The notes beneath the pieces were generated by a model. It was not told the origin of the DNA, searched no databases, and worked only from the letters and a program-made list of their open reading frames with translations. DNA of 63,986 nt, filler included, from Stramenopiles sp. TOSAG23-6 (lineage: Eukaryota), in NCBI GenBank assembly GCA_900128565.1. It is 7 parts of 7 records of this genome, joined end to end, with 100 filler letters (N's around TTAATTAATTAA, not from the genome) between each part and the next. Parts side by side here need not be neighbours in the genome. Positions count along the whole stretch, not along the records: positions 1 to 9,164 come from LT636390.1; positions 9,265 to 18,422 come from LT636391.1; positions 18,523 to 27,675 come from LT636392.1; positions 27,776 to 36,862 come from LT636393.1; positions 36,963 to 46,047 come from LT636394.1; positions 46,148 to 55,211 come from LT636395.1; positions 55,312 to 63,986 come from LT636425.1. The stretch is one strand, 5' to 3'. The position numbers were made by a program, and so were the translations under genes. Shown in pieces: positions 5,433-55,394 of this stretch (the stretch's first letter is position 1; every line of letters begins with the position of its first letter).

Positions 5433-5807
5433 TTATTTTCGAAGTTTTGAGTCATCCAAACAATTAATACGATTCGTCACAAATTTAGCAACTTCATTAG
5501 CAAGTTTATAGTATGTATCATTAGGGTCGCTATTAAATAGTTTACAATTATCACACATGCGCTTAATATCTGCCAAATACATGTTTTTTGAAGTATAATA
5601 TTCTTCGCCTTCAACATCAACACGTCTTTGAATAATTGACATATCAATCGGCTCTTTTACAATTTTAAGATACTCAGGATAAGTCACAGTATGAATTATG
5701 AAAAAATATTTCAAAAAAAAAAAACTAAAATTTGTTAGGTACAAATTTTCGTACGAAAAATAAATTCGAAATTGAAAAACAAATAAAACATGCGTTCTTC
5801 GGCTCGA
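5433..5807 (-). CDS. Bromodomain, C-terminal exons (GCN5/PCAF-like); 5' end lost at single-N join
   Basis: EPKN|TVTYPEYLKIVKEPIDMSIIQRRV...YLADIKRMCDNCKLFN...YYKLA. Confidence 0.75.
   Translation of the reverse strand, partial: SSRRTHVLFVFQFRIYFSYENLYLTNFSFFFLKYFFIIHTVTYPEYLKIVKEPIDMSIIQRRVDVEGEEYYTSKNMYLADIKRMCDNCKLFNSDPNDTYYKLANEVAKFVTNRINCLDDSKLRK
5691..5793 (-). mobile_element. Non-canonical intron, GC...AT (103 nt)
   Basis: AAC|GCATGTTTTA...TTTCGTACGAAA...TACCTAAC...ATAATTCAT|ACT; near-consensus family copy. Confidence 0.8.
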
Positions 5808-6716
5808 NTACAAAGTTTCATAATTGCAAGTCCCCACATACAAGCATGAGGATTCTGTTTATAATCAAATTTATCAATTTTCTGAAGATCTGGAAATTCA
5901 TGATTTGATTCGCAATCGAGTACAAAGTTCACAAATGTATCCAGACTATGACTACCTGTGAGTCCGTGCATTGGATAAAGGATTGAGACTGCCCATCGAG
6001 CTGTGGAAGTAGCTTTTTTAATGTCCGTGCGTTCAGCTTTCAGTCTATAGCAATGACAAAAGAATACAAACAATAGAACTTGTCTCATTCTATTGTATAA
6101 TCTCTACTATACGACAAGTATTATATTCCCCACCGTATTTTGTACACGTATAAAGTTCTCAAATCTTTATTGTTCACTCGGGGTCCGGATTCAAATTAGG
6201 AACACAAAAAAAAATCGGGTAAATTTTGAAACGGAAAACATTTGAGGGCCGGATGATGTGGCACGCACAATTTTTTATAACGGACAATTTTAAATTTTTT
6301 AAAAATAAATTAAACGGACAATTTTTTAATTTTTTCTATACTAGTACCTATACTAAAAATACCTCACATATCGATATATCGCACGGATAAGTGAATTTTC
6401 TTATATGTTGTTTTGTTCATTTTTCTTACATCAAATTCTGATTTCACCGAAACCTTTGAATGACTTCACACTTTTCATCATTTACATCTTACTTGTCTCA
6501 TTATGTAGATTGTTTGGATTCCATACCATTTTTTTGTACTTAATTTTCAAAATTTTTTTTAAGTACAAAAAAATTGTCATACAATGCATATTCAATTGGT
6601 CAGAACAAAAAACTATTAAAAGCTTCGGTCGACCGCCCACGATATCCAGTATTTACGTCATACCTATCTTTATAATATGCATCTTCTTTTTTTTTCTTTT
6701 TTTGATATCGCGACTC

Positions 6717-6816
6717 ATTTATTGTAGGGAAAATATTTTTTACAATTTGAAATTCGTTAGGTATGAAATTTTCTATAAAAAAAGAAATTGAATTGAATTG
6801 AATGATGAAAACATAC
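6717..6816 (-). mobile_element. Family intron, GT...AT (~100 nt), host gene unidentified
   Basis: GTATGTTTTC...TACCTAAC...TACAATAAAT|GAG. Confidence 0.65.
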
Positions 6817-6912
6817 ATACANCACACGGTTGTGATTGATCCGAGATACAATTTCCTGCACAGATAGAGTCGATTTTGACTTGATTAACTTAAATTTTCC
6901 ATCTCGGATGGC

Positions 6913-7002
6913 ATTTATTTTGGAAAAATATTTCAAAAAAAAATTGTTAGGTACAAAATTCCGTACGAAAAAAAAAATGAAATTTGAAAAAAAAAAACAT
7001 AC
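6913..7002 (-). mobile_element. Family intron, GT...AT (90 nt)
   Basis: TT|GTATGTTTT...TTCGTACGGAATTTTGTACCTAAC...CCAAAATAAAT|G. Confidence 0.75.
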
Positions 7003-7481
7003 AAAGATTCGTCCAACGCAGCAACTAACGTATCAATCCCTCCTTCTACCCGTGCTATGAATATTACGTTCTTTTCTGTCTTTGAGAGAATTAAGAGAAT
7101 CTCTAAGACTAATTCAAGACTCTCTACTGCCAAAGGTATGAGACCTACGGTACGTGAAGATAAGGCGGAAACAAGAGCTTGCAAGATGGGTATAAAAAAT
7201 TTACAACCGTATATACGTCCTGATATAATAGGTGCTCGAGTATCTTTTAGTAAAAGCAAAAGAATGACACGTAGACATTTTTGTAGAATTCTTAATTTTG
7301 CTAGGCTTCTGCATGCACCAATCTTCATATCGAAAGCAAGTTTTGTAACAACGTCTAAACCATCAGCTGCCATTATTGCATTAGGTGGAGATGATAAAAT
7401 AGTTGTTAATCCTGAAAGTAATTGTTCGAGGTCTCCATTAGATGCAACCAGTGAATTCACAACTTGTGCAAGTTTAGCCAT
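7003..7481 (-). CDS. Hypothetical helical (ARM-like) protein, first exon
   Basis: ATG-initiated, Leu-rich ORF ending at a family donor; no recognisable family. Confidence 0.45.
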
Positions 7482-7759
7482 TTATTCTGTTTTAGGTGAT
7501 TGAATCATAATTTAAATGATGCTTTTATAAAAGAGTTAACTGGAAAGAAAGACGAAAGTGGATCTATAAGACTACTCGTCGGGAGATAGATCGGTCATCT
7601 TTTTTTGATATCCGATTTTACATTTTTATTTACGGTTACATTCCGATTTCTTAGGAGAATCATAATTAGTGTCTTTTTGGTCAGAAAATTTGAAATTTCT
7701 ACTTGTATTATTTTCATTTCAAGTCAAATGCAATAGCGATGACCGATAAACTTTTAGTA

Positions 7760-7865
7760 TTCATTATGAATTTAGCTGAATTAAATCAACATCAACAAAT
7801 TGATAGGCACTTTTCATTATGAATTTAGCTGAATTAAATCAACATCAACAAATTGATAGGCACTT
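7760..7865. repeat. 53-bp tandem duplication in intergenic/3' UTR
   Basis: TTCATTATGAATTTAGCTGAATTAAATCAACATCAACAAATTGATAGGCACTT x2. Confidence 0.9.
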
Positions 7866-7933
7866 CTTGCACATTTGTAGCTCTACTTTTTAAAGTAAAA
7901 TTTATTAAAGAGTTAATTTTCAAGTTATCATGG

Positions 7934-9108
7934 TTAGTTACTATCACTCCCATTGCCTTGATCATTTCCTTCAGCTTTTGTTGCTATTGTCACATCCTTC
8001 ATCTGAACTTCAGTCATGCCTTGCTTCAACGCTGCTGTTTTCGATTTATTCATGTTGAAAGCAAATGCACCACCAATACCTGCTACAGCACCAATAACAC
8101 TTATACAAATAAGAGCAATCGCCCATGACTCCATACCATCATCTCCAATTTTCCGTTGGTTTGATTGAAGATTTTCTTGGTTTGGACGAAGATTTGGGTC
8201 GCATTCATTGCCCTTTGCTACACATTTGTTGCACTTGTCGACAACAGCAGATCCACCAAACTTTCCATTACAGTCAGCAACGCAGTGACTTGCTGTCAAT
8301 TTGCAATCGCCACATTTATCAACCGAGGCAAGACCAGCACAAGTCCCAGCACAATCATTTACTTTTGTGCCACCACAAGTCCCAGCGCAATCATTTACTT
8401 TTGTGCCACCACAAGTCCCAGCGCAATCATTTACTGCTTTGCCGCCAAACTTTCCTTTACAGTCAGCAACGCAATGCTTCGCTGGCAATTCGCAATCGCC
8501 ACATTTATCAACTGTAGATTTACCATTGCACACACCTGCGCAATCGTTAGATGCCGTTCCTCCCCAAACACCTGCACAATCTTGTTTACAGTTGTTTGCT
8601 GGATCTTTGTCACATACCCCGCATTTATCAATATCAGTTGTAGCAGAACACCATTCCTTCCCACCGATTTTTGGAAACACACCTGCTGCCAGAGTAACCC
8701 CAACATTTCGAAAGATGACATTAGACGATTTCAAACTTGTATTGGTTGTAAACTCTTTATTAGTTATTGCAGTTATACCAGATCCAATCACAAGACCTTT
8801 CAATTTTGTATTACCATAGAAAAAGTCTTGACCAATTGCTGTTACTGAATCAGGAATCACGAAATATCCTTTCGCATGATCCGTTCCAGATCCGAGAAGT
8901 TCATAAAATGTGAAAAATATGTAAAAAAAATATTTGTTTTTGTTAGGTACAAAATTACGTATAAAAAAAAACTAAAAAAAAAAAAATTTAAATTCACAAT
9001 GAAAACGTACAGTGTCATTCTGGAATTGTTGCATGTCAATCTTTGTCAATGCAGCCTTATCCGAATAATCCTCAAATTGAAATGTTGTAAGACTCTTACA
9101 ATTCTGAA
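7934..9108 (-). CDS. Surface protein: BspA-type LRR (LRR_5), Cys-rich DCxGxCGG repeats and C-terminal TM; exons 9108-9011 and 8902-7934; 5' truncated
   Basis: FQNCKSLTTFQF and IPDSVTAIG..FF.GN..LK.LVIG.GITAI; repeated DCAGTCGG (39-bp units); TM WAIALICISVIGAVAGIGGAF. Confidence 0.75.
8903..9010 (-). mobile_element. Family intron, GT...AT (108 nt)
   Basis: ACT|GTACGT...TACCTAAC...CACATTTTAT|GAA joins the two LRR exons in frame. Confidence 0.82.
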
Positions 9109-9164
9109 ATGTATTTTGGAAAAATATTTCAAAAAAAAAATCGTTAGGTACAAAATTTCGTACG
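9109..9164 (-). mobile_element. 3' half of family intron (...CCAAAATACAT|TT), contig end
   Basis: Consensus sequence up to the gap. Confidence 0.8.
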
Positions 9165-9264
9165 NNNNNNNNNNNNNNNNNNNNNNNNNNNNNNNNNNNN
9201 NNNNNNNNTTAATTAATTAANNNNNNNNNNNNNNNNNNNNNNNNNNNNNNNNNNNNNNNNNNNN
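9165..9264. other. Artificial contig linker (N-TTAATTAATTAA-N); further copies at 18467, 27720, 36907, 46092 and 55256
   Basis: Six-frame stop linker flanked by N runs; contig lengths decrease along the window. Confidence 0.97.
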
Positions 9265-9343
9265 AAAATATTTCAAAAAAAAATCGTTAGGTACAAAATT
9301 TCGTACGAAAAAAAAATCGATTTTGAAAATAAATAAAATATAC
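9265..9343 (-). mobile_element. Family intron, 3' end cut by gap (CAT|GTATAT donor)
   Basis: Consensus core TTTCGTACGAAATTTTGTACCTAAC. Confidence 0.8.
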
Positions 9344-10043
9344 ATGTGTAAGAGTCTGGTATTTCAAAAGATAACGTTGGTTTTGGATTTTTTTGTGATG
9401 ATATATTTTCTGTTTTACCTTGAGAAGATTCGCAACTTTGTTTTGTTTTTATTGGATGATACACATGTATTTAAAAAAATATTTTAAATTCGAAATTCGT
9501 TATGTACGTAATGTATATGAAAAAATAAATAATTTGAAATTAATTATGAAAACATACAATTTCAGAGTTATCAGTGGTAATTCCTATTTGGTGTATACTC
9601 TCTTGGGGAAAAATTTCATCTTGAAAAGATTCGTATGTAAAGAAAAACAACATTGAAGTTTTCAGTGAAATACCACAAAGAAACCAAATAAAGCACGTAA
9701 AAATCAGTCGAACTTGTTGTGTTAAATGAGCATGTTCCACATTGGTCAAATTATCTACAGTGTAGCTAACAAAAATTCCCCAGAATGCAAATACTCCCCA
9801 ATAAAAAGTATTGCGCAATTTTGTAAAATGTGAAGAAGAATCCACGTTTCTTTTTGGTCGCCAAGTCATATATAGATGGAAAAAAAGGAAAAACTCCCAG
9901 AAGAAAAAATACAAGAAGTTTTTTAACTTTTTCAAATCCTGATCAACCGGTGTGTATGCGAACGCTGAAAGAACCGATGTGTGTGTGTGTGCGAACGCTG
10001 AATGCACTACTGATAACATACTAATTGTGAAGCTTAAAAGCAA
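9344..10043 (-). CDS. Hypothetical membrane protein, 5' exons; start uncertain
   Basis: Hydrophobic ORF joined in frame to exon 9464-9344 across a family intron. Confidence 0.4.
9465..9557 (-). mobile_element. Family intron, GT...AT (93 nt)
   Basis: ATT|GTATGT...TACATAAC...TAAATACAT|GTG, in frame. Confidence 0.78.
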
Positions 10044-10384
10044 ATCCTATATTAACTAATCAAATAGTATTTTGTTAATGGCCTGAATATGTGAGGACAA
10101 CTTCACGGCGTAAGGGTCGCTCTAAGGTCCTATTAAGAGCTGATAGCGCTAACGGCTAAAAAGTGCTAAAAAAAAAGTTCAAAAACAAACTGACGTTAAA
10201 AAATTAACGGTCATATGATACTATTCACTTTTTAATATCAGACACAATTCCATACACATTCTCACTTGTTTGGCGGTGTACTATTGCAGTGTACTGAGTA
10301 TACTACTAGCAATACTACAATAATGGAGCACGAATGAGTATTTTGACAAAAGAACTGTAATTAATGAACCACGCTAGCTAGAGA

Positions 10385-12724
10385 ATGGGGCGACGCAAAG
10401 GTCGAAAGGTGGGCATAAGTCATGAAAGTCAAACCACAACTCGATATAGGTACTCTCCGTCAGTATCACCTAGGGTTAGACGTGCAGCTGCACATGCAGC
10501 CACTGCATTTCGAAGACGAAAAGATATAGACACGAGATTCAAGAGGCTTGACGGTTTCAAAAAAAGACAAAAGAAGAATGATAGTGAGTGGCTCAATATT
10601 TCTCCTACTCGAAAAGCTCAAAAATCAACCTCTTCTGCACATGCGCGAACGTCTCAACAATATGTTTTACCGATATGGAAAACAATTACTCAAACTGTTA
10701 CGAGGATTGCTGGAGCAAAACGTCGTGTTGACAGCAAAAAAAGACGTATACCAGTTACAAAGACATTCGAATTTAGGGTAAATATGGCAACTGAAGTAGC
10801 TAAGTTGACTACCTCTACAGGTGTGAAGAACCTCGGTTTTGCAAAGCAATATTCTCAAGATTATTTCGTGTATATTCCAGTATCATCTAAAGAACTAAGG
10901 AGTTCCAAGTGTACATACAAAGACTTATTTACAGGTTGCTGCTTGTCTTTACCGATGTCTTTTCGTAATGGGCGTACGTTGTCAACTTATATTACATTTA
11001 TGTTTTTGTACCAAATTTCATAATTAACGAATTTCAAATTTGACATATTTTTTCACAATGCTTGTACCAAGAAAGAAACAGTGACAACAAGTAGAATTAC
11101 ATCACGCACAAGATTACAAAAGAAGGCAAGAGTGAAAGCAACACGAAATTCTCGTAAAATCATACAAAATGAGATTGAAGAAGTATTGTTTAGAGGTGGA
11201 AATATCTCCGTAGCCAACATAGGTGAAGACTCTTCAAATTGCACATTCAAAAAATATAACTTTTCTGAGTCATTTGTGATTGCACTGTGTCCACATCCAA
11301 CGGGAAAGTATTTAGTAAACACTGAAAAGATTAGTCTCTTTGATAGAATGAAGAATGCAAAAGATTTTAATAGACAATGCGAATTAAGAGCAAATGGTAT
11401 TTTTTACAATACAACAGAATCTTCGCAAACAAATAAATTGAAACCTCCGTTTGCAATATCTGCAGCTATTATAGTGTCGCATTGGATTCCAATTCCCGAA
11501 CCAAATATGGTTGGTGATTTTGGGATTCCTCCTCCAATTATAAGCAATAAAAGTAAACAACGTTTCTTATCCTATCGGAAAAGATATAATATATTAACAA
11601 AAGTAAATGAACAACATATGATGGAAGTTTGGGAAATATGCTGGTTGGGCCGAAAATGGCCAACTGTACCAAAACCAGCGACATCTAAGAGAAGAAGAGA
11701 TATCATAAGAAAGCTTACATTAGGATTTTGGCATTCAAGTTTGATTAATCCAATAGAAATACCCCAAACAAATATATCCTCAAAAAGAGACGAGTATAGA
11801 AAATTTCGTAGTTCCAGAATTCCTCCTCGCTTTGACATCCACGAATCTATATTAATACATTATATAGAAGCAATTGGTAAACATCTTGGGGTTGCTGCGA
11901 TTCTAGTACAATCGGCAGAACACGATGTACCAACATTTATGCAGAGAATTCCATATAGTGGGTGTAATACTATCAAATTTTGTAGATACGAACAACCAGT
12001 TCTACGCAATAAACAAAGGAAAAAGAATTGGATTCATCAATTTTGTATTGCAAAAGATGAAAAACATGTCTTAAATCAGTATAAAATTAAAAAAGGTTCA
12101 CTTGGACCCTTGCAAGTATTTTATAATGGTACTAAAAATAGTACTAAAAAACAGAAACAAACAGTTATTTTGAAGAAAGGAAATACAAATACCAGAAAAA
12201 CGATTTTCAAAAACTTTAGATTCTCGCCTACATATATGATACATATATGGACATGTTTATACAAGCTACCACCATGTTTGACTGTACGTACTTCCAAAGA
12301 AAAAGAAAAAAAACGTATTTCACGAGTCATGTCACAAGAAGATATGGATCAAAGAGGAAATGATGCACAATTCAAAAGTCGTATGCAATATAAATACCAA
12401 ATTGGAACATTAAATCCCTGGGCTAATTTTGGAAATGGGGAAGAAGAAAGTAAAATTTCAAGTGATGTACTCGCGGAACTTGCGGATCTTGCCCGAAAAC
12501 GTGGTTATTCAAGTCCTACTGGTTCCATTTCAACAACCTCAAGTAATAGTAACTTTAAAAAACGTGTCAAAAAACTTACACGTAGCAGGAGTAGTGCGAA
12601 TATAAAACAACATCTCAACACACGATCCAGGCTGAAAAGGACAACATCATGGAGTGCTGGAAGTCGAGATAATGAATATGACCTGAAGCAGAAAGTGCTA
12701 GTATTTCCTAGAAAAGTTGAATAA
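10385..12724 (+). CDS. Hypothetical basic protein; exons 10385-10973 and 11064-12724
   Basis: Two long ORFs in the same frame separated by a 90-nt stop-containing intron; no family recognised. Confidence 0.6.
10974..11063 (+). mobile_element. Non-canonical intron, GT...TT (90 nt), diverged
   Basis: GGG C|GTACGT...AATTAAC...TTTTCACAATGCTT|GT ACC; no AG within the intron. Confidence 0.7.
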
Positions 12725-12888
12725 ATTTTTGAAAATAATAGAATGTTGTTTGCAGGTGCGAGTTCTTTTGGGATGTTCAGCAATGTTAATATATATTGAA
12801 ACGAAATTATAAAAATTAATTATTTTTTTTGTTTTGTTTATTCTGATTGATCTTGTCATATGAATAATAAAAACTATTTTTCTGGAAG

Positions 12889-14895
12889 TCATACCGTGGA
12901 AACAAATAGTAAACCAAATACACCCAATAATAATATTGGTGTAGCTGTTGATGACATTGAAGGCGTTTTTTGGTGACCACCCCAGCCCATAAAAGCATTA
13001 CAATTATTTGTCTCACACGCAGCACAATAATGTTCTGCTGGTTTTACTAAAGTCAAATTCCTTTCCTTGAGATACATTTTCCATTGTTCTTCTTTTTGAT
13101 GTGTGAGTGTTACTTTCTCAAAATTGTCCATTGAACCATTACAATCTGAAACACCATAATCATCAGGTTCACAACGCCCAAGCAAAATTTTATGTTGTTT
13201 TTCTTTAAAGTCGACCAAAGAGAACTCGGTGATACATTTCTTGCCATGGTCACATTCTTTTTCATCATGGGGAGACACGCGAAACTCAGCACTTAAAGTT
13301 GAGAGCCATTCTCTGTTAGTGGCTTCATCATTTATATGTAGAAAATGATTACACTTCAAGGCAGGAACAATTGCAACACCTTTATCTGAGCTGGTGACAG
13401 CAGCAACAACAGCAATTTTACGAAGTTTGTTTTTGTCATCCAATTTTAATTGGAAATCATCGAGCTTTGATAAATCAAGAATTTCAGAACATATTGCACC
13501 AGATAGTTGATTCTCGCCCAAGTTCAACAATTTGAGATTAGTAAGTTGACAAATTGTATCGGGTATTAAGCCCGAGAGTTCATTGTTTAACAAATTCAAA
13601 AATTTAAGATTTGTTAGTTGACCAATTTCATTTGGAATTGAACCAGATAGTTGGTTGTCTCGCAATTTCAAATGCGTGAGATTTGTTAGTTGACCAATTT
13701 TGGTTGGAATTGTACCAGATAGTTTGTTGTTGTTCAACGACAAATGCCTGAGATTTGTTAGTTGACCAATTTCATTTGGAATTGAACCAGATAGTTGGTT
13801 GTCTTGCAATTTCAAATGCGTGAGATTTGTTAGTTGACCAATTTTGGTTGGAATTGAACCAGATAGTTGGTTGTTCTCCAAGTGCAATGTTTTAAGTTTC
13901 GTTACTTGACCAATTTTGGTTGGAATTGTACCAGATAGTTGGTTACGATTCAACCACAATTCTTGAAGATTTGTTAGTTGACCAATTTTGGTTGGAATTG
14001 AGCCAGATAGTTTGTTGTTCCACAATTGCAATTTTTCGAGCTTTGTTATTTGACCAATTTCCGTTGGAATTGGACCAGTTAGTGTGTTATGATTCAACCA
14101 TAATTCTTTAAGATTTGTTAGTCGACCAATTTCAGTTGGAATTGAACCAGTTAGGTTGTTTCGAATTAAGGTCAATTGTTGGAGATTTCTTAGTTGACCA
14201 ATTTCTTCTGGTATTGAAAGAGATAGTTGATTATTGAATAAGTACAATCCTTTGAGATTTTGTAATCGCCCAATTTCTTTTGGTATTGAATCAGATAGGT
14301 TGTTGAGTGACAAATACACTGTTTCAAGATTTGTTAGTTGACCAATTTCCGGAGGTATTGGACCAGATAGTTCGTTGTCTGACAACCACAATCTTTCAAG
14401 ATTTGTTAGTTGACCAATTGCCGCAGGAATTGGACCGGATATATTGTTCCTTGACAAGCTCAATTTTTCGAGGTTTGTTAGTTGACCAATTTCCGGAGGT
14501 ATTGGACCAGATAGTTTGTTGTTGTTCAAAACCAATTCTTTAAGCCTTTTTAATTGACCAATTTGCGGAGGTATTTCACGAGATAGTTCGTTGAACGACA
14601 AATTCAACAATTCGAGATCTGTCAATTGACAAATTTCTTTTGGAATTTTACCATTGAGTTTGTTCTGTTCCAAGTGCAACTTAACAACAGTGTCTTCCTC
14701 AGCATTACAAGTTACACCATACCAATGGCAAACATTTACATCTGTCTTCCAATTTGTACTAATAATCCAATTATGTCCATCAGTTGCGTCATAGATTTGT
14801 TTTAAAGCCTCCACTTGTTCTTCAGGTACTACTGCTTTACATTCAGTGTAATAAGCATTAAATATCATCAGTGAAATAAGTAATTTCGTGTTCAT
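12889..14895 (-). CDS. Secreted, probably GPI- or TM-anchored plant-type LRR protein
   Basis: Signal peptide, LRRNT cap (W..NW....CHWYGVTC), about 17 24-aa LxLxxNxLSGxIPxEIGxLxxL repeats, Cys-rich domain and hydrophobic C-terminus; intronless. Confidence 0.92.
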   Translation of the reverse strand: MNTKLLISLMIFNAYYTECKAVVPEEQVEALKQIYDATDGHNWIISTNWKTDVNVCHWYGVTCNAEEDTVVKLHLEQNKLNGKIPKEICQLTDLELLNLSFNELSREIPPQIGQLKRLKELVLNNNKLSGPIPPEIGQLTNLEKLSLSRNNISGPIPAAIGQLTNLERLWLSDNELSGPIPPEIGQLTNLETVYLSLNNLSDSIPKEIGRLQNLKGLYLFNNQLSLSIPEEIGQLRNLQQLTLIRNNLTGSIPTEIGRLTNLKELWLNHNTLTGPIPTEIGQITKLEKLQLWNNKLSGSIPTKIGQLTNLQELWLNRNQLSGTIPTKIGQVTKLKTLHLENNQLSGSIPTKIGQLTNLTHLKLQDNQLSGSIPNEIGQLTNLRHLSLNNNKLSGTIPTKIGQLTNLTHLKLRDNQLSGSIPNEIGQLTNLKFLNLLNNELSGLIPDTICQLTNLKLLNLGENQLSGAICSEILDLSKLDDFQLKLDDKNKLRKIAVVAAVTSSDKGVAIVPALKCNHFLHINDEATNREWLSTLSAEFRVSPHDEKECDHGKKCITEFSLVDFKEKQHKILLGRCEPDDYGVSDCNGSMDNFEKVTLTHQKEEQWKMYLKERNLTLVKPAEHYCAACETNNCNAFMGWGGHQKTPSMSSTATPILLLGVFGLLFVSTV

Positions 14896-15334
14896 TTTTG
14901 TATATAATATAAAAGAAGCGTGTTGGTGATCTCTTCTATGAGCTATACAATAAACAGCAGAAGTTTCTGAGGAGAGGAATACTAGCTACTGCAGTAGGTA
15001 CTGTAAAAAAATAGAATTTATTGAAAAGAAAACTTAAGAGTAGTTCTGAGTTCTCAGTTCTAAGTTCTAAGTTCTAACCAGAAATGAATGACTGGTCAGC
15101 TGCAATTGCTATTGATATTGATACCCTATTCGAGATTCTGCATTCCTAATTTTTTTTATTTTTAATTTTATTTCCGGCAGTTTTGTTCCAATTTTTGGAT
15201 TTTTTCAGATTCGAAAAACTCTCCGAACTCTTCGACGAATACTTCGAGCTCTACTCTACACTTCTTCTTCATCTCAGACCTTTGGCCCGCCCCTGGGTTA
15301 CTAAATTTTGTCTGTGCTCTAGACGTGTTTTCCC

Positions 15335-18522: not shown

Positions 18523-18576
18523 GTACGAAATTTTGTATGAAAAAAAAATTAAATTAGAAATTCATATAAAACATAC
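18523..18576 (-). mobile_element. 5' half of family intron (GCT|GTATGT), contig start
   Basis: Shares an identical 5' sequence with copies at 27776 and 36963. Confidence 0.8.
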
Positions 18577-20829: not shown

Positions 20830-21046
20830 ATTTGGGTTGGATATTATTATTATAATTTATTTTATCAGTATTATTAGTATTATTATAGATTTCGATTTCA
20901 ACGACAAATATCAAATTCTTTGAATGCTAACTTATAGATACAATAAAGTAGAAATCTATATACTCTAAATTTATTGAGATTAATTATCACTTTTTCATTT
21001 CTCTACAATTACAAAGATTGATTCTAAATTGCTCAAACTCATAAAC

Positions 21047-36962: not shown

Positions 36963-37026
36963 AAATCGTTAGGTACGAAATTTCGTATGAAAAAAAAATT
37001 AAATTAGAAATTCATATAAAACATAC
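36963..37026 (-). mobile_element. 5' part of family intron (GG|GTATGT), contig start
   Basis: Consensus core and branch motif. Confidence 0.8.
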
Positions 37027-44848: not shown

Positions 44849-45951
44849 ATGAACAGCATGGAGAATGCTGCAACTCCGATGGATGTTGTTCAAACTTCTG
44901 GCACCAACCCAGCGGTAAAAACACCAATAGTAGCTGGTGCATTGGCAGACAATGTTTCTTCTACTACAACTTCAGAGATGTCAATATCAGACTCTTCTAC
45001 TCAACCACCTGTATTAAAGGATAATACAACATCGGATGCTACTCCAAGCATTTTACCACCATCAGTGATGGAACAATCAGAGTCTCCTGCTGTTGCAGCA
45101 GTGACTATATCGATCAGTGAGCGTTACCCAACTCTTAATGCGGAGTCTGCAAAACACCCTCGACCAAGTGATACGAAGCTTGACTATGGAACTGCAGGTT
45201 TCCGTCTACCTTCTGAAAAGTTGGATTCAACAGCTTTCCGTATGGGTCTTATAGCTGTTCTTCGTGCCAAACATCAAGGTGCTATTACTGGTATTTGTAT
45301 GACTGCATCTCACAATCCTATTGCTGACAATGGCATCAAATTGGCTGACCCTGACGGAGGTGTGATTGATCCGAGTTGGGAAGGATACTGCAATTTACTT
45401 GCAAATGCACAGGAAGGTAAGGTTGCTGAATGTATTCAACAAATTGTAGACGAAGAAAAAATTGATCTGGAAAAAGAAGCTAGTATTTTCATAGCTAGGG
45501 ACACTCGACCAAGTACGTTTTCAAAATTTCAAAAGTTTATTTTTTTTTTCGTACTAAAATGTGTACCTAACAAAAAAAAATCAAATTTTTGATTTTTTTT
45601 CACAATACATGTGGTGAACATCTCATAACTCTAGCGCGAGAAGCTGCTCTGATTCTTCGAGCGAATGTCCTCGACTTTGGTATTCTCACTACTCCTCAGT
45701 TACATTCTTCTGTTCGTATGTTTAATCTTGGTGACAAGATACATTTCACTGAATCTGGTTACTACAAAATGGTAAGTGATGCATTCATAAGCTTGCTTTC
45801 CACCACTGAAGATCAAAATCAGTTGGAAACAAGAGACTGGAATATTATTGTAGATGGGGCGAATGGAGTTGGTGCTCACAAATTAGCTAAATTACAAGTA
45901 GTTCTTGGTGATGCTGGGCGTCTAAAACTAGAAATTCGCAATGGTGGAAAT
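44849..45951 (+). CDS. PGM3: Phosphoacetylglucosamine mutase; exons 44849-45512 and 45611-45951; 3' truncated
   Basis: YGTAGFR, MTASHNP..DNGIKL.DP.G, RDTRPSG, TTPQLH and VDGANGVG. Confidence 0.93.
45513..45610 (+). mobile_element. Non-canonical intron, GT...AT (98 nt)
   Basis: CCA A|GTACGT...TACCTAAC...CACAATACAT|GT GGT restores conserved DTRPSG. Confidence 0.92.
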
Positions 45952-46047
45952 GTACGTTTTATTTTTTTTCAATTTCTAATTTTGTTTTTTATAAAAATTT
46001 TGTACCTAACAAATTTTAGTTTTTTTTTTTTTGAAATATTTTTCCAA
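45952..46047 (+). mobile_element. Family intron cut by contig end (AAT|GTACGT)
   Basis: Consensus sequence. Confidence 0.82.
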
Positions 46048-46235: not shown

Positions 46236-48506
46236 ATACCCTCCATCTACACCTTTAGAGATTTGTGACTGAATGAGCCAAGAAAACCAACGGTCCAGCC
46301 GGGGCCATATACTTTCAAGAAAAAGTATCATTTCTGTATTGTCTTCATTTTCGTCATTATTAGGCGCAAACCGAAGGAAGTGTTCCAATACCAATAAAAT
46401 TGTAGGCGGATTTGCATGTGTTTTGTGTTGAGGAATAAATTGATCTGGGACGCGACTCTTTGCTTCTTCTCCTAAAATTTGTTCTCTAGGCAACCAAGTA
46501 TTGTGAAAAATATTTTGTTTTGGATAAAATAATCGTTACGTGCAAAATTTCGTATAAAAAAAAACAATTGAAATTATAGCGGACAAGGTACATCCCGAGG
46601 GTTGGACTTGATTCATCCAATGTGCCATAATATCCATTGCCATGGTAGCATCCCAAGTAGCAATGACCAATAAATGAAAGCCTTCATCCCAAAGAAATCC
46701 CCTTGGAAAAAATATATTGTAAAAAATTATTTTTTAATTTTGATTTTGTGTTAGTTGAAGAATTAATTTTCTATGAAAATAAATAATTAATTTGAAATTC
46801 AAATACTAACGTCGTACATGGTCTGGAAGGAGATCCTGAAAAAAGTGGAGCCAATGGAGTAAATTCTTCTTTCTTTGATGAATTGTCATTCTTAATCATA
46901 GATTGGCCATAATAATATCCTATACCACCCAAAAGTTCACTGAGCGCAGATTCAGCAAATTGCAAATAAGTCGTATCATGTATGTTGGAAAAATATTTCA
47001 AAAAAAAAACTAGAATTTGTTAGGTACAAAATTTCGTACGAAAACAAAATCGAATTTGAAAAAAAATAAAACATACATGAGGCTTCTTTTTTTTTCTCTC
47101 TTTTTTGTTCTCTTTTTTGTTTTTACTACTATTTGTATCCTTTAGACCCTGAGGTTTCTTCTTTTTCGATAAAGCGAAAACTTTATTAAATCGGGTATGA
47201 AATCTCTTCACTCTTTTCGAAATTATTTCATCTATTTTCTTTGATACCTCCGAATAATTCGAATTTGTAATTTCTTTTGAATCCCAGTGCATCCAATGAT
47301 CTGCACCATCAACTTTTAGTGTTTTCGGAGTAAATATTGTAACAATCTCAAAATTAGTCGGGACAGTAAATTGAATAATAACAACATTTGCATTTATCCC
47401 ACCTTTTTTGGGGAATTTATTGGGAAGGTTTCCTCCATTTTTTTCCATGATATTTTTAAGTGTGTCATGGAGACGATGATTAGGGTTTTGTCGACGAGCT
47501 CCCCAATAATGTATTTTGGAAAAATATTTCAAAAAAATTTCGTTAGGTACAAAATTTCGTACGAAAACAAAATTCGAAATTGAAAAAAAAATTCAACATA
47601 CATGAACTGAAACTACTGAATCTTCTTCTTCTTCATTGTTCACAACAGACACGGTCTTGCCTGCAGCACTTACAACACGCACTGTAACATTGAATTCACC
47701 AATTTCAACAGCTGACGAGTCTCCAGTAATCATGTATTGTTGAAAAAATATATATTGTTGTTTAAAAATGATTTGTGAAAATGGTAAAAAAAAATATTCT
47801 ACATTCAATTTTGAGCACGGTAAAAAAAAAATATTCTACATTCAATTTTGAGCACGTACATTACACCTGTTTCATCGCGATTCACAAGTTTCAAATATGA
47901 ATGTTCTGAACAATCAAAATCGCAGTCGAGAACAATCGCATAAAATATATCAACTAGATTCATTTGTCGATCAACTTTAGCAGAAGCATCTTTTGAAGAG
48001 GACAGAGTAGAAAACGATGTACCACGAATTCGAGCGGCCCAATTATTAGGCACATCTAGCGACTTTAAAAACGATGTCTCGAGTGAAAGATTGGATTTAC
48101 TATCTACAATGTCTTGGACACCGAAAGTTCGCCCATCATGATATTTCCAACGATATTTATCAATATTATCACTCATTGAACACTCATGACGCAGTTCCTG
48201 CCCAGGAGCACGGGAACGCCACATGACACCAGTTGCAACAGATTCTGGAAAAGTACGCGATTTAGTTCCAAAATAAATCCCAGGTCTATAAGTACCCCAA
48301 AGGAGAGCATTATTGTGTGCTTTGTCGAAGACTGATAAAGGTGAATTTTCACCAAACGAGACCTCAGGGGAAGACAAAATCGTTGGAAGTATTTTAAACA
48401 AAATCGCTACAATGACGGCAATTCCTGACATAAAACATAAAGAATATAAACTTACATTACTCTTGGAATTACTTTTATCATTTTTATTCTTTGAAGGGAT
48501 TGCCAT
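46236..48506 (-). CDS. MOGS: Mannosyl-oligosaccharide glucosidase I (GH63); six exons, 3' truncated
   Basis: LLWGTYRPGIYFG, LRHEC, HDGRTFG.Q.I.D, ALSELLGGIGYYYG, PSRPFFPRGFLWDEGFH, GWLPREQILG.EA.SRVP and ANPPT. Confidence 0.95.
46496..46591 (-). mobile_element. Non-canonical intron, GT...TT (96 nt)
   Basis: GGA T|GTACCT...TCACAATACTT|GG TTG CCT restores GWLPREQ. Confidence 0.9.
46712..46817 (-). mobile_element. Non-canonical intron, GT...AT (106 nt), strongly diverged
   Basis: CCA T|GTACGA...AACTAAC...TTACAATATAT|TT TTT CCA restores SRPFFPRG. Confidence 0.9.
46978..47076 (-). mobile_element. Family intron, GT...AT (99 nt)
   Basis: CAT|GTATGT...AACATACAT|GAT. Confidence 0.87.
47509..47601 (-). 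mobile_element. Family intron, GT...AT (93 nt)
   Basis: CAT|GTATGT...AAAATACAT|TAT. Confidence 0.87.
47732..47859 (-). mobile_element. Diverged intron, GT...AT (128 nt), with an internal ~37-bp tandem duplication
   Basis: GTA AT|GTACGT...AACAATACAT|G ATT, in frame. Confidence 0.8.
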
Positions 48507-48792: not shown

Positions 48793-49772
48793 ATGTCGTT
48801 AGATTTTGACTCGTCCGGCTCATTGCCTCCAACGAAAAGCAATCAGCCAGACTTTGAGAAGTTAGGGACTGGTGTGAAAAGTTGGAATTCAATATTCTCC
48901 GCTCCAATATTTGTACTTTTTTCTTTCGGTGCAGTATGTGCTGTGTTGTTGACGACAGAGATTAAGCAAATGCCATCATATTATTCTGACAACGTGCCCA
49001 TGAGAGAAATGCACAAGCAAGAGTCCCCTGTAGTACCCCAAATTACTATATCAACTCACAATCAGTCAACTGCAAAAGTTGTGCGTTCTCAAAGTGGATC
49101 AATTCTAAAAGAGGTGAAGGAACCTTTATTTGTTGAACCAAATTCTCATACAACATCAACACCGAAAAACATTGAGGATTCAGATAACATTATGCATAAT
49201 CCTAAAAATGTATCAAGTCTAAAGAAAGTTCAGAAACCTGAAAAATTTGAACCAAATCCTGAGACCATTCAACGGGCTATGGCCCAGAAAAAAACTAAAA
49301 ATGTCGCAAACTCAGTAAGTGACAGAAAAACAAATGCTAACAACTCAGACACAGAAACATCAACGAAAACTACTGAATATGATCATTTTACTTTACCAAG
49401 TTCTAAACCACAAAGTAAAAAAACGGCACACGAAAAGTTGTACGTTTTCATTTCAATTTCGAATTTATTTTTTGGTACGAAATTTTGTACCTAATGATTT
49501 TTTTTTACGTATACGTTTTCATTTTAATTTCGATTTTTTTTTGGTACCAAATTTTGTCCCAACACATTTTTTTTTTCAAATATTTTTCACAAGACTTGAC
49601 TTTACCAAAACCTGAATTTAGTATTACAAATTTGTTGATTCATCCAATTATGCCCGAATTGGCACGAATGATTGAGAAAGGATCTAAATTTGAGGGAAAA
49701 AAACACGTTGATATTTTGCCCCCTGAGAATATTGTCTATCATCAGCATAAAATTCAAGAAGATGGAATTTAA
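48793..49772 (+). CDS. Hypothetical type II membrane protein; exons 48793-49439 and 49598-49772
   Basis: N-terminal TM and a low-complexity stalk; in-frame join across the intron. Confidence 0.55.
49440..49597 (+). mobile_element. Intron, GT...TT (158 nt), with an internally duplicated 5' module
   Basis: (G/A)TACGTTTTCATTT.AATTTCGA...GGTAC.AAATTTTGT occurs twice; ends CACAAGACTT|G. Confidence 0.75.
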
Positions 49773-49810: not shown

Positions 49811-52800
49811 TTATTTTTGTTTTCTACTCTTTGCACTATACCGTAGCCATTGTATTAATACTTTTCGAAGTCTGCGTGATTTTATATGTTGATACAAATG
49901 AAGTAATTTACTAATTTCGCGTTTGACAATTTTGTGATGACGACTCCACCTCTTCCACAAGCTCCATGATTGCCATAATTTCGTATGATACATTCTCCGA
50001 AATATTGGATTTATTACGGATTTCATATTTTGAACATTTCGATAAAGACGAGTTTGATCAGCATGTATTGTGAAAAAATATTTAAAAAAAACTTGTTAGG
50101 TACAAACTTTCGTACTAAAAAAAAACTACAAATAAATTCAAAATTGAAAACGTACATAATGTTGCTCAATGATCGATAACCATTTATTAAACTTTTTAGC
50201 CTTCAGATTACGTCTATAATTATTTACTGCGAGTTGTAATCGATTTAGTATAGAATATGCATAGTGATAATGCTGAACTTTAGTAGTCCAACTTTGCCAA
50301 CTTTTACGAAGATTTTTCTCACTCCAGTGTTCATGTATTTTGGAAAAATATTTAAAAAAAAAACTAAAATTTGTTAGGTACAAAATTTCGTACGAAAAAA
50401 AACATTTGAAATTAAAAAAAATAAAACATACATAATCCCGAGAAATTATTGCGGAAATTCTCATTAACATTCTTTTTCGTGTGTTTTTAGAGTTTTGTAA
50501 TTCTTCCTCTTTTTTTATGATATTATTCTTGAAAATAAACTGTTTTTTTTTGGAATGTCGGATTTTCAAATCCCAATGCGCTTTGTCCATAACATGTAAT
50601 TTGGAAAAATATTTCAAAAAAAAATCGTTAGGTACAAACTTTCCTACGAAAAAAAAACGAATTTGAAAAAAAATAAAACATACATGTAATTTGTGTTTTA
50701 ATTCATCTTGAATTCCTGTAGCTGTATCCAACTTTGATTGCAATTCGCGTATTGCTGTTTTATGTTTCGCTGTAATATCCAATTGTTTATTTTTTGCAGA
50801 AGCATCACTACAAATTTTATACTGATTTTCCATATCAAGATAAGATGATGTAACTGCTTCTATCTTTGCTTCTAAAACATCTTTTTCTTTATTTTGTTGA
50901 ATCTCTAATTCGCAATTAGTATTTTCAATGGATGACAAATGCTTTTCGAATGCTAATTTGGTTGTATTTTGCTCATCTACAAGAATACTGTATGCAAGTT
51001 CCTTCGATTGTACTTCAGATTGGAGATAATTATAAGTCTCGTTGTGTTTCCTGTTCAATTCAATCTCAGAGTTTTCGGCAACTTCTAAATTTGCTTCAAA
51101 TTGAGACATACTCTTTTCATGTTGTTCTTTTAATGTTTTGTGAAAGTTTGCTGCAGTTTGTAGTTTCTCTTCAAACTTATGTATTTCTGTATTATGTTTT
51201 GTCTTTAATTTTAAATGTTTACTTTCTGCAGACTTAAGTTCGTTCAAAGATACAATGTGAAGAGTCTGTAAATCAATCGAAGCTTGTTTAGCATCTTCCA
51301 ATTTTTTCTCTAGTAGTACATTTTTTTCAATTTGATTTGCTTCTGATTCCATATGAGTAACTTCAGAAACTTTTAATGCATCTTCAAGTTTTGCTTTATC
51401 AAGTTTGATATGCAAGTTTTCCATTTCATGATCTTTTTCTAATTGAGAATACTCATTTTTTAAATCATTTAATTTTTGAATCTTTGCGATATAATGTTCT
51501 TCTAATCTATTGTGAGCTGTTTTGGCAGCTTTTATTTTTAAATTGAAGTCTTTGACTTCAGCATCATGTTTGATAAAGAGAGATGCTCGATCTATTCTAA
51601 GCTTGGACACCTTTGACAAATATTCTGTTTTTATTCCTTTATTATGCGCTTCTGATTTCAGTTTTCTTTTCTCCATTGAATCTAACTTTGTTTGAAATTG
51701 GTGTATTATTGTGTCATGTTTGGATTTCATTTCCACGTGTTCCATTGTCAAAGTGGCTTTCATATCCATAAGTGCAATTTGTGTAGAATCTATTTTTTTG
51801 TGTAATTCATTCACTTCTATGATGTGGTCATTGTGGTCTTTTAATTGTTTGGCTTTAGATAATTTGTGTATAACACGCAACCACTTATTAAAATTCAATT
51901 GCAATGAATGTGCAGTATATATTTTAAGACAATATTCCATGATCTCAGTCATGCGTTTAAGAACACGATGGCGTTTCATAGAATGCCTATGTGCAGTTTT
52001 TGTATTGATCACCCATTTTTGTAGAGCTTTACTTACATTAGCTAATCTCCAAATATCAAAAGTATTGTATAAAATTGTGACAGAAAGGATCTTATTCCGT
52101 GTACTAATCAAGTTGTTACGCCAGAGACGTATACCATTGTTCAATTTGTTATGCTTCCACAATGATGCAATGTTTTTAAGCACAATGCTTTGATATCTTT
52201 TAGTAAGTTTTTCCCTTTTTTGAGACATTTTAAACCAAGATATCCACGTTCTGAATGCAATTGACGTTTTACGATAGACCATGTGTTGTACTCTTTGTTT
52301 CACAATAATATTCAAGTGTTTCAATGATTTATGAATTTTTTCTTTCTCTCGTAAATATTGCTGCCAGGAATTCCATGCAACAAACAGATTCCGATGATAC
52401 ATACGGGCAAGTATTCTCTTTGCAGCTTCTATATTAGATGATACACTCAATGCATTATGATGTTTTTTTAAATATGAATTCCATTTTGTCGACATTTCTG
52501 TGACTTGTTGATGATAAATTTTCATCCTTGCATTATACAATGTATCATACGATGTTAGGTTATAACGGTTCTTCCGTTGTAAACATGTTTTCCACTTATT
52601 CCATGAGCGGTATATTAAGTAATTATGGATGCGACGGAGGACACCATTTATTATACTGATTGCCGATGAAAATCTCAAGTATGATGCATTATTGTACTGC
52701 AAATACGCATGCCAGTTGTTCCACGAACTGTATAATTGACGTAAGCGGTGGTGCCCCATCTTTCTATTAATAATATTATTCAATTTGTTTAATTTTCGAA

Positions 52801-55170
52801 ACGTACTATATTCTATTTCAAGAAAGGCCCGCCAAGTATTCCAAACTTGACACATTTGATTATTCTCAAATCGAATAATTATTTTTCGTAGTATATTTTC
52901 AGCAGAAATAAAGTTAACAAGCCTTCGTTTTTGATCATGTACAAATACTTGCCACTTTTTCCATGTACGAGAGATTCTTTTCTCATGTATACGACTGAAT
53001 GTTTGTTTTATTAATTTACTTTTGTATTTTAGCTGTATTTCTAGCTTGTTGACTTGATGCACTAATTGGTACCAAGTATTCCAAGCCCGAAATAATTGAT
53101 CATGTTGTAAAAGAACTAATGCTCGCTCAATAGTACGATTCACTGAGGTTATCACACAAATAGTATAATACTTAATATCTAGATATTCACGCCAATAATA
53201 CCACGCATAGTACAACTTACGATGTAACATTCGATTTACAAAAATTACCATCCGAAGTCTTAAGTAATCCGACCTTTTTTCATTGTGTCTTTCAAAATCA
53301 ACGATGTTAAACCAAGTTGTCCATGTGCGAACAATTTGTTTATGTTCGATATACTTCATTGCTCTGTCTAATATTATATCGGAAGAAATCAACTTCTGAA
53401 GAATATGATCTTTATCTTTCAGATAATCACGCCATTTTTTCCATGAGTGATACATACACCGATACTTGAAACGATTTATCACTAGTTTAATGATCATTCG
53501 ACTATAGACACTTAATTTACGCTGATCTTTTTGAACCCATGATAAATATTGCCAAGATTTCCATGCTCTACACAATTGGCAATGACGAAAACGAGTTACG
53601 ACACAATCCAATGTAAAATTGGCTTTGCCTAATATATTACACATGTTATTTCTACATTGAACAATTTGACACCAATCGGTCCATACTTTACGAATTGTAC
53701 GATTCTTTATACGATGCAGTTGTGCTGTAAATATCGCATTCACTGTTTTTAGATTTTGATACACAGTTTCTAAATGTAATAACTTTCTACGCCACGTATT
53801 CCATCCACGAAAAATCTGCAAATGACGATAGTAACCTATCGCTCTTTCAATGATTCCATTTACTAAATCTAATTTTTGAATGACTTTATTTTTCATTTTC
53901 GTATAGGTACACCAAGTAGTCCAAGCATTACACATTTTCCTATGTATCATACGATTTACCGAGACACGAACACGTACACAAACTTTTATATAACTTAATC
54001 TCCTATTTCGATGATATTGCACCATTTCCATCCATTTGCTCCATGATTTCCATACTTGCATCCGATTAAACCGAGATATTGCATTATCAACGAGACGGGA
54101 TAGATGGTTCATTGCTTTACTCATATGCTTTCTGTCTTTTGAAGTAAAATACCAAAAGTTCCAAAATTTAAGCATTTGATGACGTTGAAAACTATCCATT
54201 GATTTTTCTATGATACTACAAAATTTGTTTATCTTTTGATTGATATTCTTTCTATAATCTATAAATATACACCAATTATTCCATGCTATCGATACATAAT
54301 GATGTAAGAGTTTCCCTATAATTCTATTGACGTTCTCGAGAGTTTGTAAAGCAGAATGTTTTACGCTCACATGTTTGTGCCATATTTGCCACGTGCAAAG
54401 TAATTTTTTATGACTAAATCTTCTCTTCATAATTTTCATACATGAACTTACTATTCGACTATTACTTTTGTGTAGATGCATAACATAACACCACCTGTTC
54501 CAAGCGCGATGAATTTGTTGATAATACTGAAAATCAGCGTTTTTTTTGAATCCATGGTAAATACATGCTACTGCTCTATAAAGTAATATTTCTGGGTTCT
54601 GCCATGCCCGTAAAACTTTTATCTGACTAGTACTACTGCGTGAACTAATTAATTTTTTCAGTTGTTTTGATTTTTGATACAAAATACTACCTTCATATTT
54701 TGATACCTTTACGGTTTCATACGCTACTGTAAGAGCTGTTATACTATACCAAGTATTCCATGTTCTTCTAAGTAGAAATTTGTTATGAAAACTAAATATC
54801 TTTCCAAATAGAAGGGCAGATTGGAGTTGTTTCACTTTATTCTCTGCTAAAAGATTTCTATTTCTTTCCCTTTCTTGCCTTATTTTCAATGTAGTTCTAG
54901 TATCTGCTAATATCCATTGCATTTCTTGTTTCAATAGCTTTACTTTATCATATGATTCACGTGCAACTTGATGATGTAATACATTCCTCCATTTCAGCCA
55001 CGCAGAAAGAAGCATTCTAGATTTCCACTTCATTAACGTGTGAAAAACTACGACAGTTTTGGCGGCTGGGATTCTACCGTGTGTTTTGGTACGCGAGATC
55101 TCTATTTGTCCCTTCAATTTCTTCTCTTCATCATCTTTATGTAGAGAAGCTATGATGTTACTTTTATCAC
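49811..55170 (-). CDS. Sfi1-like centrin-binding repeat protein with a coiled-coil segment; three introns; 5' truncated
   Basis: More than 20 xxWxxW repeats at regular spacing, followed by a long coiled coil. Confidence 0.65.
50063..50155 (-). mobile_element. Family intron, GT...AT (93 nt)
   Basis: TAT|GTACGT...CACAATACAT|GCT, in frame. Confidence 0.85.
50333..50431 (-). mobile_element. Family intron, GT...AT (99 nt), in frame and stop-free
   Basis: Consensus copy read through in the ORF track as VCFIFF...KYFSKIH. Confidence 0.87.
50594..50683 (-). mobile_element. Family intron, GT...AT (90 nt), in frame and stop-free
   Basis: Consensus copy read through as VCFIFF...KYFSKLH. Confidence 0.87.
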
Positions 55171-55311
55171 TGGAATAATTGGTGTATATTTATAGATTAT
55201 AGAAAGAATATNNNNNNNNNNNNNNNNNNNNNNNNNNNNNNNNNNNNNNNNNNNNTTAATTAATTAANNNNNNNNNNNNNNNNNNNNNNNNNNNNNNNNN
55301 NNNNNNNNNNN

Positions 55312-55394
55312 TATTTCAAAAAAAAAACTTAAATTTGTTAGGTACGAAATTTCGTACGAAAAAAAATTCATAGTAAAAAAAAAATAAAACATAC
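55312..55394 (-). mobile_element. Family intron cut by contig start (mirror of 63904-63986)
   Basis: TTA T|GTATGT plus consensus core. Confidence 0.8.

Follow-up and report, generated by a model that had tools for sequence, protein, structure and literature searches.

A high-copy, introner-like family of introns that end in AT or TT in an uncultured marine stramenopile

Can a family of spliceosomal introns multiply through the genes of a nuclear genome without the AG that marks the end of an intron? Few signals of eukaryotic genes are as constant as this terminal AG, and its recognition in the second step of splicing is still a subject of study. The question is raised by a short repeat (hereafter, the element) in a stretch of 63,986 nucleotides (nt) from Stramenopiles sp. 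TOSAG23-6 (GCA_900128565.1). This stretch, referred to below as the window, consists of seven joined contigs of 8.7-9.2 kb each with N spacers between them, and has a GC content of ~29-41% (in 2-kb steps). A first-pass annotation of the window had reported ~40 copies of an introner-like repeat in unrelated genes. Here we confirm that the element forms a genuine family of introns, present in many copies and with an acceptor other than AG; it is a variety of introner that we have not found described. Most probably, these are short spliceosomal introns of a high-copy introner-like family, located in the nuclear genome of a marine stramenopile that has not been cultured.

An 11-nt core motif of the element, with at most one mismatch, gave 40 matches against 1.68 expected from shuffles; this motif is palindromic, and hence most sites are counted twice among the 40. 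An iterated nhmmer profile, built from ten copies, gave 37 matches in the window at E<1e-3, with E-values down to 1e-20. Six copies that were missed by the profile or are very short were added by reading gene structures (1983-2093, 46712-46817, 47732-47859, 9465-9557, 1-70 and 27776-27802). With one tandem pair and one copy doubled by the palindromic contig 7 merged, this amounts to 41 distinct copies, 31 complete and 10 truncated at contig ends, which together with the duplicate arm make up 4008 of the 63297 non-N bases (6.3%). Complete copies are 90-114 nt long, apart from three of 128, 158 and 214 nt that contain internal or tandem duplications. The copies interrupt unrelated host genes, such as those for AP-2 mu, phosphoacetylglucosamine mutase (PGM3), glucosidase I (GH63), a bromodomain protein and EF-hand proteins, and each copy lies on the strand of the adjoining long open reading frames (ORFs). 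No antisense copy was found among the 41 in the window, and no intergenic copy in the 16-22% of it that is neither long ORF nor copy.

These counts bear out most of what the first-pass annotation had claimed about the repeat: its copy number, its confinement to the sense strand of genes, where antisense and intergenic copies in equal numbers were to refute the introner reading, and its presence at 11 of the 14 contig ends. The repeat is what fragments the assembly. The stretch reported as shared at 18576, 27802 and 37026 is present as well, and is 26 nt long. Two statements need to be amended. Copies had been described as ranging from near-identical to highly diverged; highly diverged copies do exist, but near-identity is true only of contig-end fragments, the pairwise identity among complete copies being 93% at best (89-93% for the best pairs) with a median of 72%. 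The range given for the family, 5691-55394, does contain copies, but others lie outside it, at 1-70, 1746-1843, 1983-2093 and 63904-63986.

The boundaries of the 31 complete copies are uniform. They start with GT in 29 cases, GC in one and AT in one, and end with AT in 26 cases and TT in five; none ends with AG. If each copy is removed exactly, from the G of the donor through its final T, the longest reading frame before it runs on into the longest one after it in 26 of the 31 copies (chance 1/3, P ~1e-8), and the frame is kept in 27 after correction of one 3' end. The four exceptions are a copy that probably lies in a 5' untranslated region (UTR; 28199-28289), 5691-5793, which has an N nearby, 6913-7002 and 24108-24199; the last two share one needed correction, possibly reflecting assembly indels or a variable 3' cut. 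Splicing was observed directly in the polyA metatranscriptome run X8, where record 19 (176 nt) lies on 47432-47508 and 47602-47700, with exon stretches of 77 and 99 nt either side of the junction, and skips exactly 47509-47601. Record 17 of the same run ends exactly at the donor of 46978-47076 and is a possible second spliced read, which we did not count, its other side not being among the matches listed. An internal TAG, present 9-10 nt past the branch site in some copies, was considered as an alternative acceptor and is ruled out by frame for 21174-21271. The copy at 21702-21815 starts with ATATGT and can still be removed exactly without loss of frame; it may have an A-first donor with a T-last acceptor, contain a sequencing error, or be a dead intron.

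Comparison with conserved proteins gives the register of the cut, with eight junctions in the AP-2 mu, PGM3 and GH63 genes agreeing with homologs. Without 1746-1843 and 1983-2093, AP-2 mu is a protein of 435 amino acids (aa) that aligns gaplessly at both junctions with a 437-aa relative (P0002, 76% identical), in which the stretch around the second junction is identical. In the case of PGM3, the junction codon left by 45513-45610 encodes Ser, as in 11 of 13 homologs, while a cut 1 or 2 nt upstream would give Cys, found in none of the 13. With five copies removed, GH63 is an uninterrupted ORF of 582 aa. Its TT-ending copy at 46496-46591 leaves a junction codon for Trp, which 12 of 14 homologs share (GWxPREQILG), and the sequence FFPRGFLWDE, of which FFPRGF is present in 13 of 14 homologs, is regained only with the AT acceptor at 46712. 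A GT-AG reading of this last intron (46701-46809) needs a gap and loses the motif, and GT-AT at 46712-46817 is preferred. AT-AC boundaries, suggested by the AT that precedes the donor, would change a conserved Cys of AP-2 mu to Tyr, and some copies lack the upstream AT. The shifts permitted by all the junction cases overlap only at zero, so that no other register, AT-AC included, is allowed. In search of a second junction able to tell GT...AT from a cut one base upstream, we looked for homologs of the protein that 10974-11063 interrupts, and found none. The element copies are thus real introns with boundaries GT...(A/T)T that are exactly removed, and the non-AG acceptor proposed in the first-pass annotation is borne out by both the RNA contig and the homology at the junctions.

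The element is far more abundant than the window alone can tell. We compared depth along contig 6; the figures are rough, being summed over contigs and mixing loci and possibly relatives. In the seawater DNA metagenome X3 (8141 records), the summed depth was 554-19223 in 300-nt bins containing the element versus 0.24-14 in unique bins, an excess of approximately a thousand-fold, whereas the same contrast in the polyA RNA run X8 was approximately ten-fold. Taking depth only as evidence for the order of magnitude, element copies number in the thousands; the smaller contrast in RNA hints, weakly, that mature RNA contains less of the element. One further locus was returned by a pattern scan of metagenome contigs, and none by the same scan of viral contigs. 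This locus (L001, 3.2 kb) has a copy at 2476-2578 on the minus strand with the ends AT^GTATGT...ATACAT^G (^, splice boundary), situated between ORFs of the same strand, and is otherwise unlike the window.

The assembly itself has flaws, including single N's, the contig ends within the repeat, and contig 7 (55312-63986), whose perfect 2687-nt inverted arms (55312-57998 and 61300-63986) flank a centre of 3301 nt and duplicate one element copy and several ORFs; this palindrome is probably a chimera of single-cell amplification or assembly. One could suppose on these grounds that the repeat or its odd ends are likewise an artefact of amplification or assembly. We find this scarcely credible, as independent DNA metagenomes and metatranscriptomes also contain the element, as does an unrelated metagenome contig, and conserved protein residues confirm its junctions.

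The element has a constant architecture: a donor GTATGT or GTACGT, TTTT, a T-rich spacer, the palindrome TTTCGTACGAAA, the near-perfect branch-site motif TTTTGTACCTAAC, an optional AAATTTTAG, a T run, and the 3' block GAAATATTTTT(C/T)CA(A/C)AATAC(A/T)T. The donor is yeast-like, the body is U-rich, and the strong branch site TACCTAAC is followed ~33-50 nt further on by the 3' end, in a block ending ...ATAC(A/T)T. Of the U2-type signals, the donor and the TACCTAAC branch motif are present and conserved, and the AG acceptor is absent. The copies form at least two subfamilies, GTATGTTTTATTTT...CCAAAATACAT and GTACGTTTTCA...TTCACAATAC(A/T)T, and further groups have indels in common, such as AAATTTTAG after the branch site. 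Most copies have the 12-nt perfect palindrome TTTCGTACGAAA immediately before the branch site (e.g., 47556-47567), in old copies in the form YRTACNAAA; it could be the binding site of a dimeric protein or a second branch-like motif. Three introns, 47732-47859, 49440-49597 and 37961-38174, have internal duplications (one a 38-nt tandem repeat, the other two composites of a partial copy followed by another copy), and each seems to be spliced out as a single intron that starts at its first GT and finishes at its final AT or TT.

How would such an intron be removed? A copy is transcribed as part of its host gene and excised exactly, from the donor G through the final T, with AT or TT, and never AG, as the acceptor. 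The conserved donor and branch site make the major spliceosome the likely route. Several other ATs lie between the branch site and the true acceptor, so that AT alone cannot mark the 3' site; instead, the conserved 3' block, or the distance from the branch point, may direct an AG-independent second step of the major spliceosome. Whether the major spliceosome of this lineage indeed chooses its 3' sites independently of AG, by reading a block of ~20 nt supplied by a mobile intron, is a matter on which we are evenly divided. Non-spliceosomal removal, guided by terminal direct and inverted repeats as proposed for euglenids and Amoebophrya, would also explain an acceptor that is not AG: the 5' AT^GTAT is the reverse complement of the 3' ATAC^AT, AT is repeated on both sides, and the Amoebophrya introners, as far as the accessible text describes them, have inverted repeats of 8-20 nt, direct repeats of 3-5 nt and variable borders (PMC7789003). 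We consider this highly improbable for the element, since its borders are uniform rather than variable, and its donor (GT in 29 of 31, mostly GTATGT or GTACGT) and TACCTAAC are textbook spliceosomal signals and its best-conserved parts. Moreover, the ends pair over 4-7 bp in young copies and over 3 bp in the GTACGT subfamily, without compensating change, and RNAalifold predicts no pair.

Removal by the major spliceosome being the preferred route, the next question is how the family came to occupy so many genes. In 20 of the 31 complete copies the donor is preceded by AT, which then stands on both sides of the copy, and in 24-25 a G comes after the acceptor; this points to an insertion context (Y)AT^G. 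GTAT(G)TTTT at one end and AAAATAC at the other match as inverted repeats along 4-7 bp. Both these ends and the AT repeat coincide in part with splice signals, and both are degraded in the GTACGT subfamily. Mobility is suggested by the subfamilies together with the direct AT repeat and the short inverted termini. The family may have spread by insertion at (Y)AT^G sites into the sense strand of transcribed DNA, either as a non-autonomous DNA transposon whose ends are GTAT...ATAC and which duplicates 2 bp of its target, AT, or through reverse splicing followed by reverse transcription. By either route the copy would end up flanked by AT, and its splicing would give back the message as it was before insertion. 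Miniature inverted-repeat transposable elements insert in both orientations and outside genes, whereas all 41 copies of the element are in sense orientation within transcribed regions; the lack of antisense and intergenic copies would fit an RNA-linked route or transcription-coupled insertion at least as well as a DNA transposon.

It should be noted that several observations weigh against this interpretation as a whole. A single junction was observed in RNA, and only the PGM3 junction tells GT...AT from a cut one base upstream. Three complete copies, 5691-5793, 6913-7002 and 24108-24199, fail the frame, the latter two needing a cut 1 nt earlier or 2 nt later. RNAalifold on 24 copies gave 0 pairs of a shared RNA fold, leaving the choice of the 3' site without a structural explanation. 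As to mobility, the inverted ends span only 4-7 bp, part of which is donor signal, a preference of the splice sites would account for the AT repeat equally well, and no empty site, polymorphism or autonomous partner was found for the element. Complete copies are at most 93% alike and form at least two diverged subfamilies, so that the ongoing or recent invasion inferred in the first-pass annotation is no more than possible. Finally, the old copies keep mainly the donor, branch site and 3' block, which is also what pure splicing constraint would preserve.

The last two points are the core of the main rival explanation, according to which these are old, immobile introns that have been kept alike by exacting splicing signals, perhaps with gene conversion, and that have never moved. 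The best-kept parts of diverged copies are indeed the likely signals GTAYGT, TTTTGTACCTAAC and ATATTTTTYCAMAATAC(A/T)T, and a median identity of just 72% is found in very T-rich sequence. Against this, young copies are 89-93% alike across their whole 90-100 nt, spacers included, indels are common to subfamilies, tandem partial copies occur within single introns, and the element is present at a ~thousand-fold excess depth in the DNA metagenome. In addition, the AP-2 mu relative P0002, gapless across both junctions, is the full-length product of a 4.5-kb metagenome contig; it is known as a protein, and an uninterrupted ORF is the simplest structure for its gene, in which case both introns would be absent from it. 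Whole-length identity, subfamilies, tandem partial copies and this apparently intronless relative weaken the view that the introns never moved, which we regard as unlikely. The copies that underlie the preferred reading, that of a mobile introner-like family, are given in Table 1.

Table 1. Copies of the element in the window, followed by the one ordinary intron recognised
Position	Strand	Description	Evidence at junction
1-70	+	3' part, truncated by contig start; ends ...ATATAG or ...ATAT, exact boundary ambiguous	
1746-1843	+	complete, diverged, 98 nt, GTTTGT...TATAT; AP-2 mu intron 1	gapless spliced alignment (RVMMKAF)
1983-2093	+	complete, 111 nt, GTACGT...ATACAT; AP-2 mu intron 2	SFHRC^VRLGK identical in P0002
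5691-5793	-	complete, 103 nt, GCATGT...TTCAT; bromodomain gene; frame off by one, N 15 nt upstream	
6717-6816	-	complete, 100 nt, ends ATAAAT	
6913-7002	-	complete, 90 nt, ends ATAAAT; frame misfit (-1 or +2 needed)	
8903-9010	-	complete, diverged, 108 nt, GTACGT...TTTTAT	
9109-9164	-	3' part, truncated by contig end	
9265-9343	-	5' part, truncated by contig start	
9465-9557	-	complete, diverged, 93 nt, GTATGT...ATACAT	
10974-11063	+	complete, diverged, 90 nt, GTACGT...ATGCTT	
18523-18576	-	5' part, truncated by contig start	
21174-21271	-	complete, 98 nt; frame requires whole-copy removal, not internal TAG	
21702-21815	-	complete, 114 nt, starts ATATGT, not GT	
23159-23262	-	complete, 104 nt, GTTTGT...ATACAT	
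23581-23682	-	complete, 102 nt	
24108-24199	-	complete, 92 nt; frame misfit (-1 or +2 needed)	
27620-27675	-	3' part, truncated by contig end	
27776-27802	-	first 27 nt, truncated by contig start	
28199-28289	+	complete, 91 nt, GTAGGT...ATACTT; probably 5' UTR (first ATG of downstream frame 9 nt further)	
36963-37026	-	5' part, truncated by contig start	
37526-37629	-	complete, 104 nt	
37761-37867	-	complete, 107 nt, GTACCT...ATACAT, several N inside	
37961-38174	-	composite, two tandem partial copies, 214 nt, GTATGT...ATGTAT	
38346-38437	-	complete, diverged, 92 nt, ends ATACTT	
38558-38649	-	complete, 92 nt	
40578-40674	-	complete, 97 nt; EF-hand protein gene	
41377-41468	-	complete, 92 nt, GTACGT...ATACAT; same EF-hand gene as 40578-40674	
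45513-45610	+	complete, 98 nt; PGM3 gene	Ser, as in 11 of 13 homologs
45952-46047	+	truncated near its 3' end by contig end	
46148-46235	-	truncated at last base by contig start; GH63 gene	
46496-46591	-	complete, 96 nt, GTACCT...ATACTT; GH63 gene	Trp, as in 12 of 14 homologs
46712-46817	-	complete, diverged, 106 nt, GTACGA...ATATAT; GH63 gene	AT acceptor restores FFPRGFLWDE
46978-47076	-	complete, 99 nt; GH63 gene	
47509-47601	-	complete, 93 nt; GH63 gene	spliced out in RNA contig
47732-47859	-	complete, diverged, 128 nt, 38-nt internal tandem duplication; GH63 gene	
49440-49597	+	composite, 158 nt, 5' half copy then nearly whole copy; ends AGACTT	
50063-50155	-	complete, 93 nt; 3' part of gene with longest ORF of 1683 aa	
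50333-50431	-	complete, 99 nt; 1683-aa-ORF gene; no in-frame stop	
50594-50683	-	complete, 90 nt; 1683-aa-ORF gene; no in-frame stop	
55312-55394	-	5' part, truncated by contig start	
63904-63986	+	second appearance of 55312-55394 in inverted arm of contig 7; not independent	
29592-29692	-	ordinary GT-AG intron, 101 nt, GTAGGT...TTCCTAAC...CACAG; proteasome beta-2 gene; no family-profile match	

The intron in the last row is the sole non-family intron recognised in the window, so that the family supplies at least 41 of the 42 introns recognised, as the words "nearly all introns" of the earlier annotation had implied. Its branch motif is TTCCTAAC, and the alignments of its two exons to a solved chain leave exactly one residue between them, as the AG junction predicts; a frameshift error in this proteasome gene was considered and rejected in favour of an ordinary GT-AG intron. 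The presence of this intron indicates that the use of AG has not been lost in the genome.

Two public gene models of the window, P0003 (1129-2636) and P0241 (46148-48506), are mis-spliced: GT-AG boundaries were forced, and real coding sequence was deleted. In P0241, the acceptor is placed at the internal TAG of 46978-47076, with the remainder of this copy translated, and the contig-end copy is likewise read as coding sequence. P0003 contains ten residues encoded by the tail of 1746-1843 and wrongly omits five internal segments, including one that begins at the junction of 1983-2093. The annotation behind both models failed to recognise the family introns.

The other genes of the window are those of a eukaryote. 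Besides AP-2 mu, the bromodomain and EF-hand proteins, PGM3, GH63 and the proteasome beta subunit, they encode Nup160, a Cse1-like importin, leucine-rich repeat proteins and an ABC ATPase. At 19657-20856 and 23626-25135 on the minus strand there are genes with sperm-tail PG-rich (SHIPPO) repeats, together with a weak Casc1-like match below the Pfam cut-off, which suggests that components of a flagellar axoneme are encoded. No small nuclear RNA or tRNA genes were found within the window. P0003, whose source name starts with "eukprot:GSMAST32", is identical to the AP-2 mu exons of the window wherever it aligns, and by the label of this public protein the host is an uncultured MAST-3 marine stramenopile.

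If the major spliceosome of this lineage does choose 3' sites without AG, by a block that the mobile intron supplies, an element duplicating AT rather than AG could colonise thousands of genes, and would constitute the first uniform GT-AT class of spliceosomal introns, existing beside GT-AG introns in one nucleus. Having thousands of introns in which a canonical donor and branch site go with a terminal AT or TT, this would be a natural genome in which the rules of 3'-site choice could be tested directly. Intron-making mobile elements would then be known also from the MAST-3 flagellates, which are abundant and uncultured, and an introner would need neither to bring an AG nor to borrow one. There is a practical side too: gene finders that allow only GT-AG give wrong proteins for this organism, as in the two genes described above, and gene counts and functional inferences for the lineage may need revision.

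How does the element compare with known kinds of intron? U12-type introns have AT...AC ends, an ATATCC-type donor and a branch site near the 3' end. At first sight, an AT...AC reading is possible in 20 of the 31 complete copies; however, the donor and branch motifs are U2-type ones, as is the spacing of 33-50 nt between the branch site and the end of the intron, and the boundaries are not AT-AC. Introner elements were reportedly treated by Huff et al. in 2016. In the literature that we searched on GT-AT introns in protists and on non-canonical introns of stramenopiles, we found no description of the family or of a uniform GT-AT class, and no paper linking introners to MAST. The intron type is unmentioned in the main text, to the extent that this is accessible, of two papers on single-cell genomes of marine protists, MAST-3 among them (PMC5778133; preprint 10.64898/2026.04.17.719054).

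Introns with one canonical and one non-canonical end, whose ends can pair, are known as intermediate or nonconventional introns from euglenids, and the element resembles them in these respects. Unlike the element, as far as the available text of those papers goes, they have variable borders and a structure joining their ends, and are not one high-copy sequence family (PMC4770533, PMC3935182); neither variable borders nor stable end pairing, the hallmarks of nonconventional introns, are found in the element. In some tunicates (Fritillaria and relatives), the accessible text reports genomes with largely non-GT/AG introns (PMC13326754). That case concerns an animal, with both ends non-GT/AG and changes in U1, U6 and U2AF, whereas the element departs at its 3' end only. 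The non-canonical introners of the dinoflagellate parasite Amoebophrya, also a marine protist, have in common with the element non-GT-AG borders, terminal repeats and a spread that is transposon-like, as it may be in the element (Farhat et al. 2021, PMC7789003). According to the portion of that study available, they have no dominant terminal dinucleotides, their inverted repeats form hairpins, and parts of U1 are apparently missing. The element differs in having a canonical donor and branch site, uniform borders and no predicted shared fold.

The strongest resemblance is to introners proper, which are established in many protists, including stramenopiles, and, in the accessible text of the survey, have GY-AG boundaries with rare GC or GA donor variants (Gozashti et al. 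2022, PMC9860276). The introns surveyed there were annotated ones, and since the public models here force GT-AG, such a survey would miss the family. Like the introners known from marine protists and fungi, among them those of Micromonas, Aureococcus (also a stramenopile), Symbiodinium and Chrysochromulina, the element forms many similar, short, sense-oriented introns in unrelated genes. Like them, it brings at least one splice site of its own, has short direct and inverted end repeats, overlapping its splice signals, that may hint at a non-autonomous DNA transposon, and leaves the length of the message restored. Unlike the described GT(GC)-AG families, it ends with AG in none of 31 complete copies, having in its place a uniform (A/T)T 3' end.

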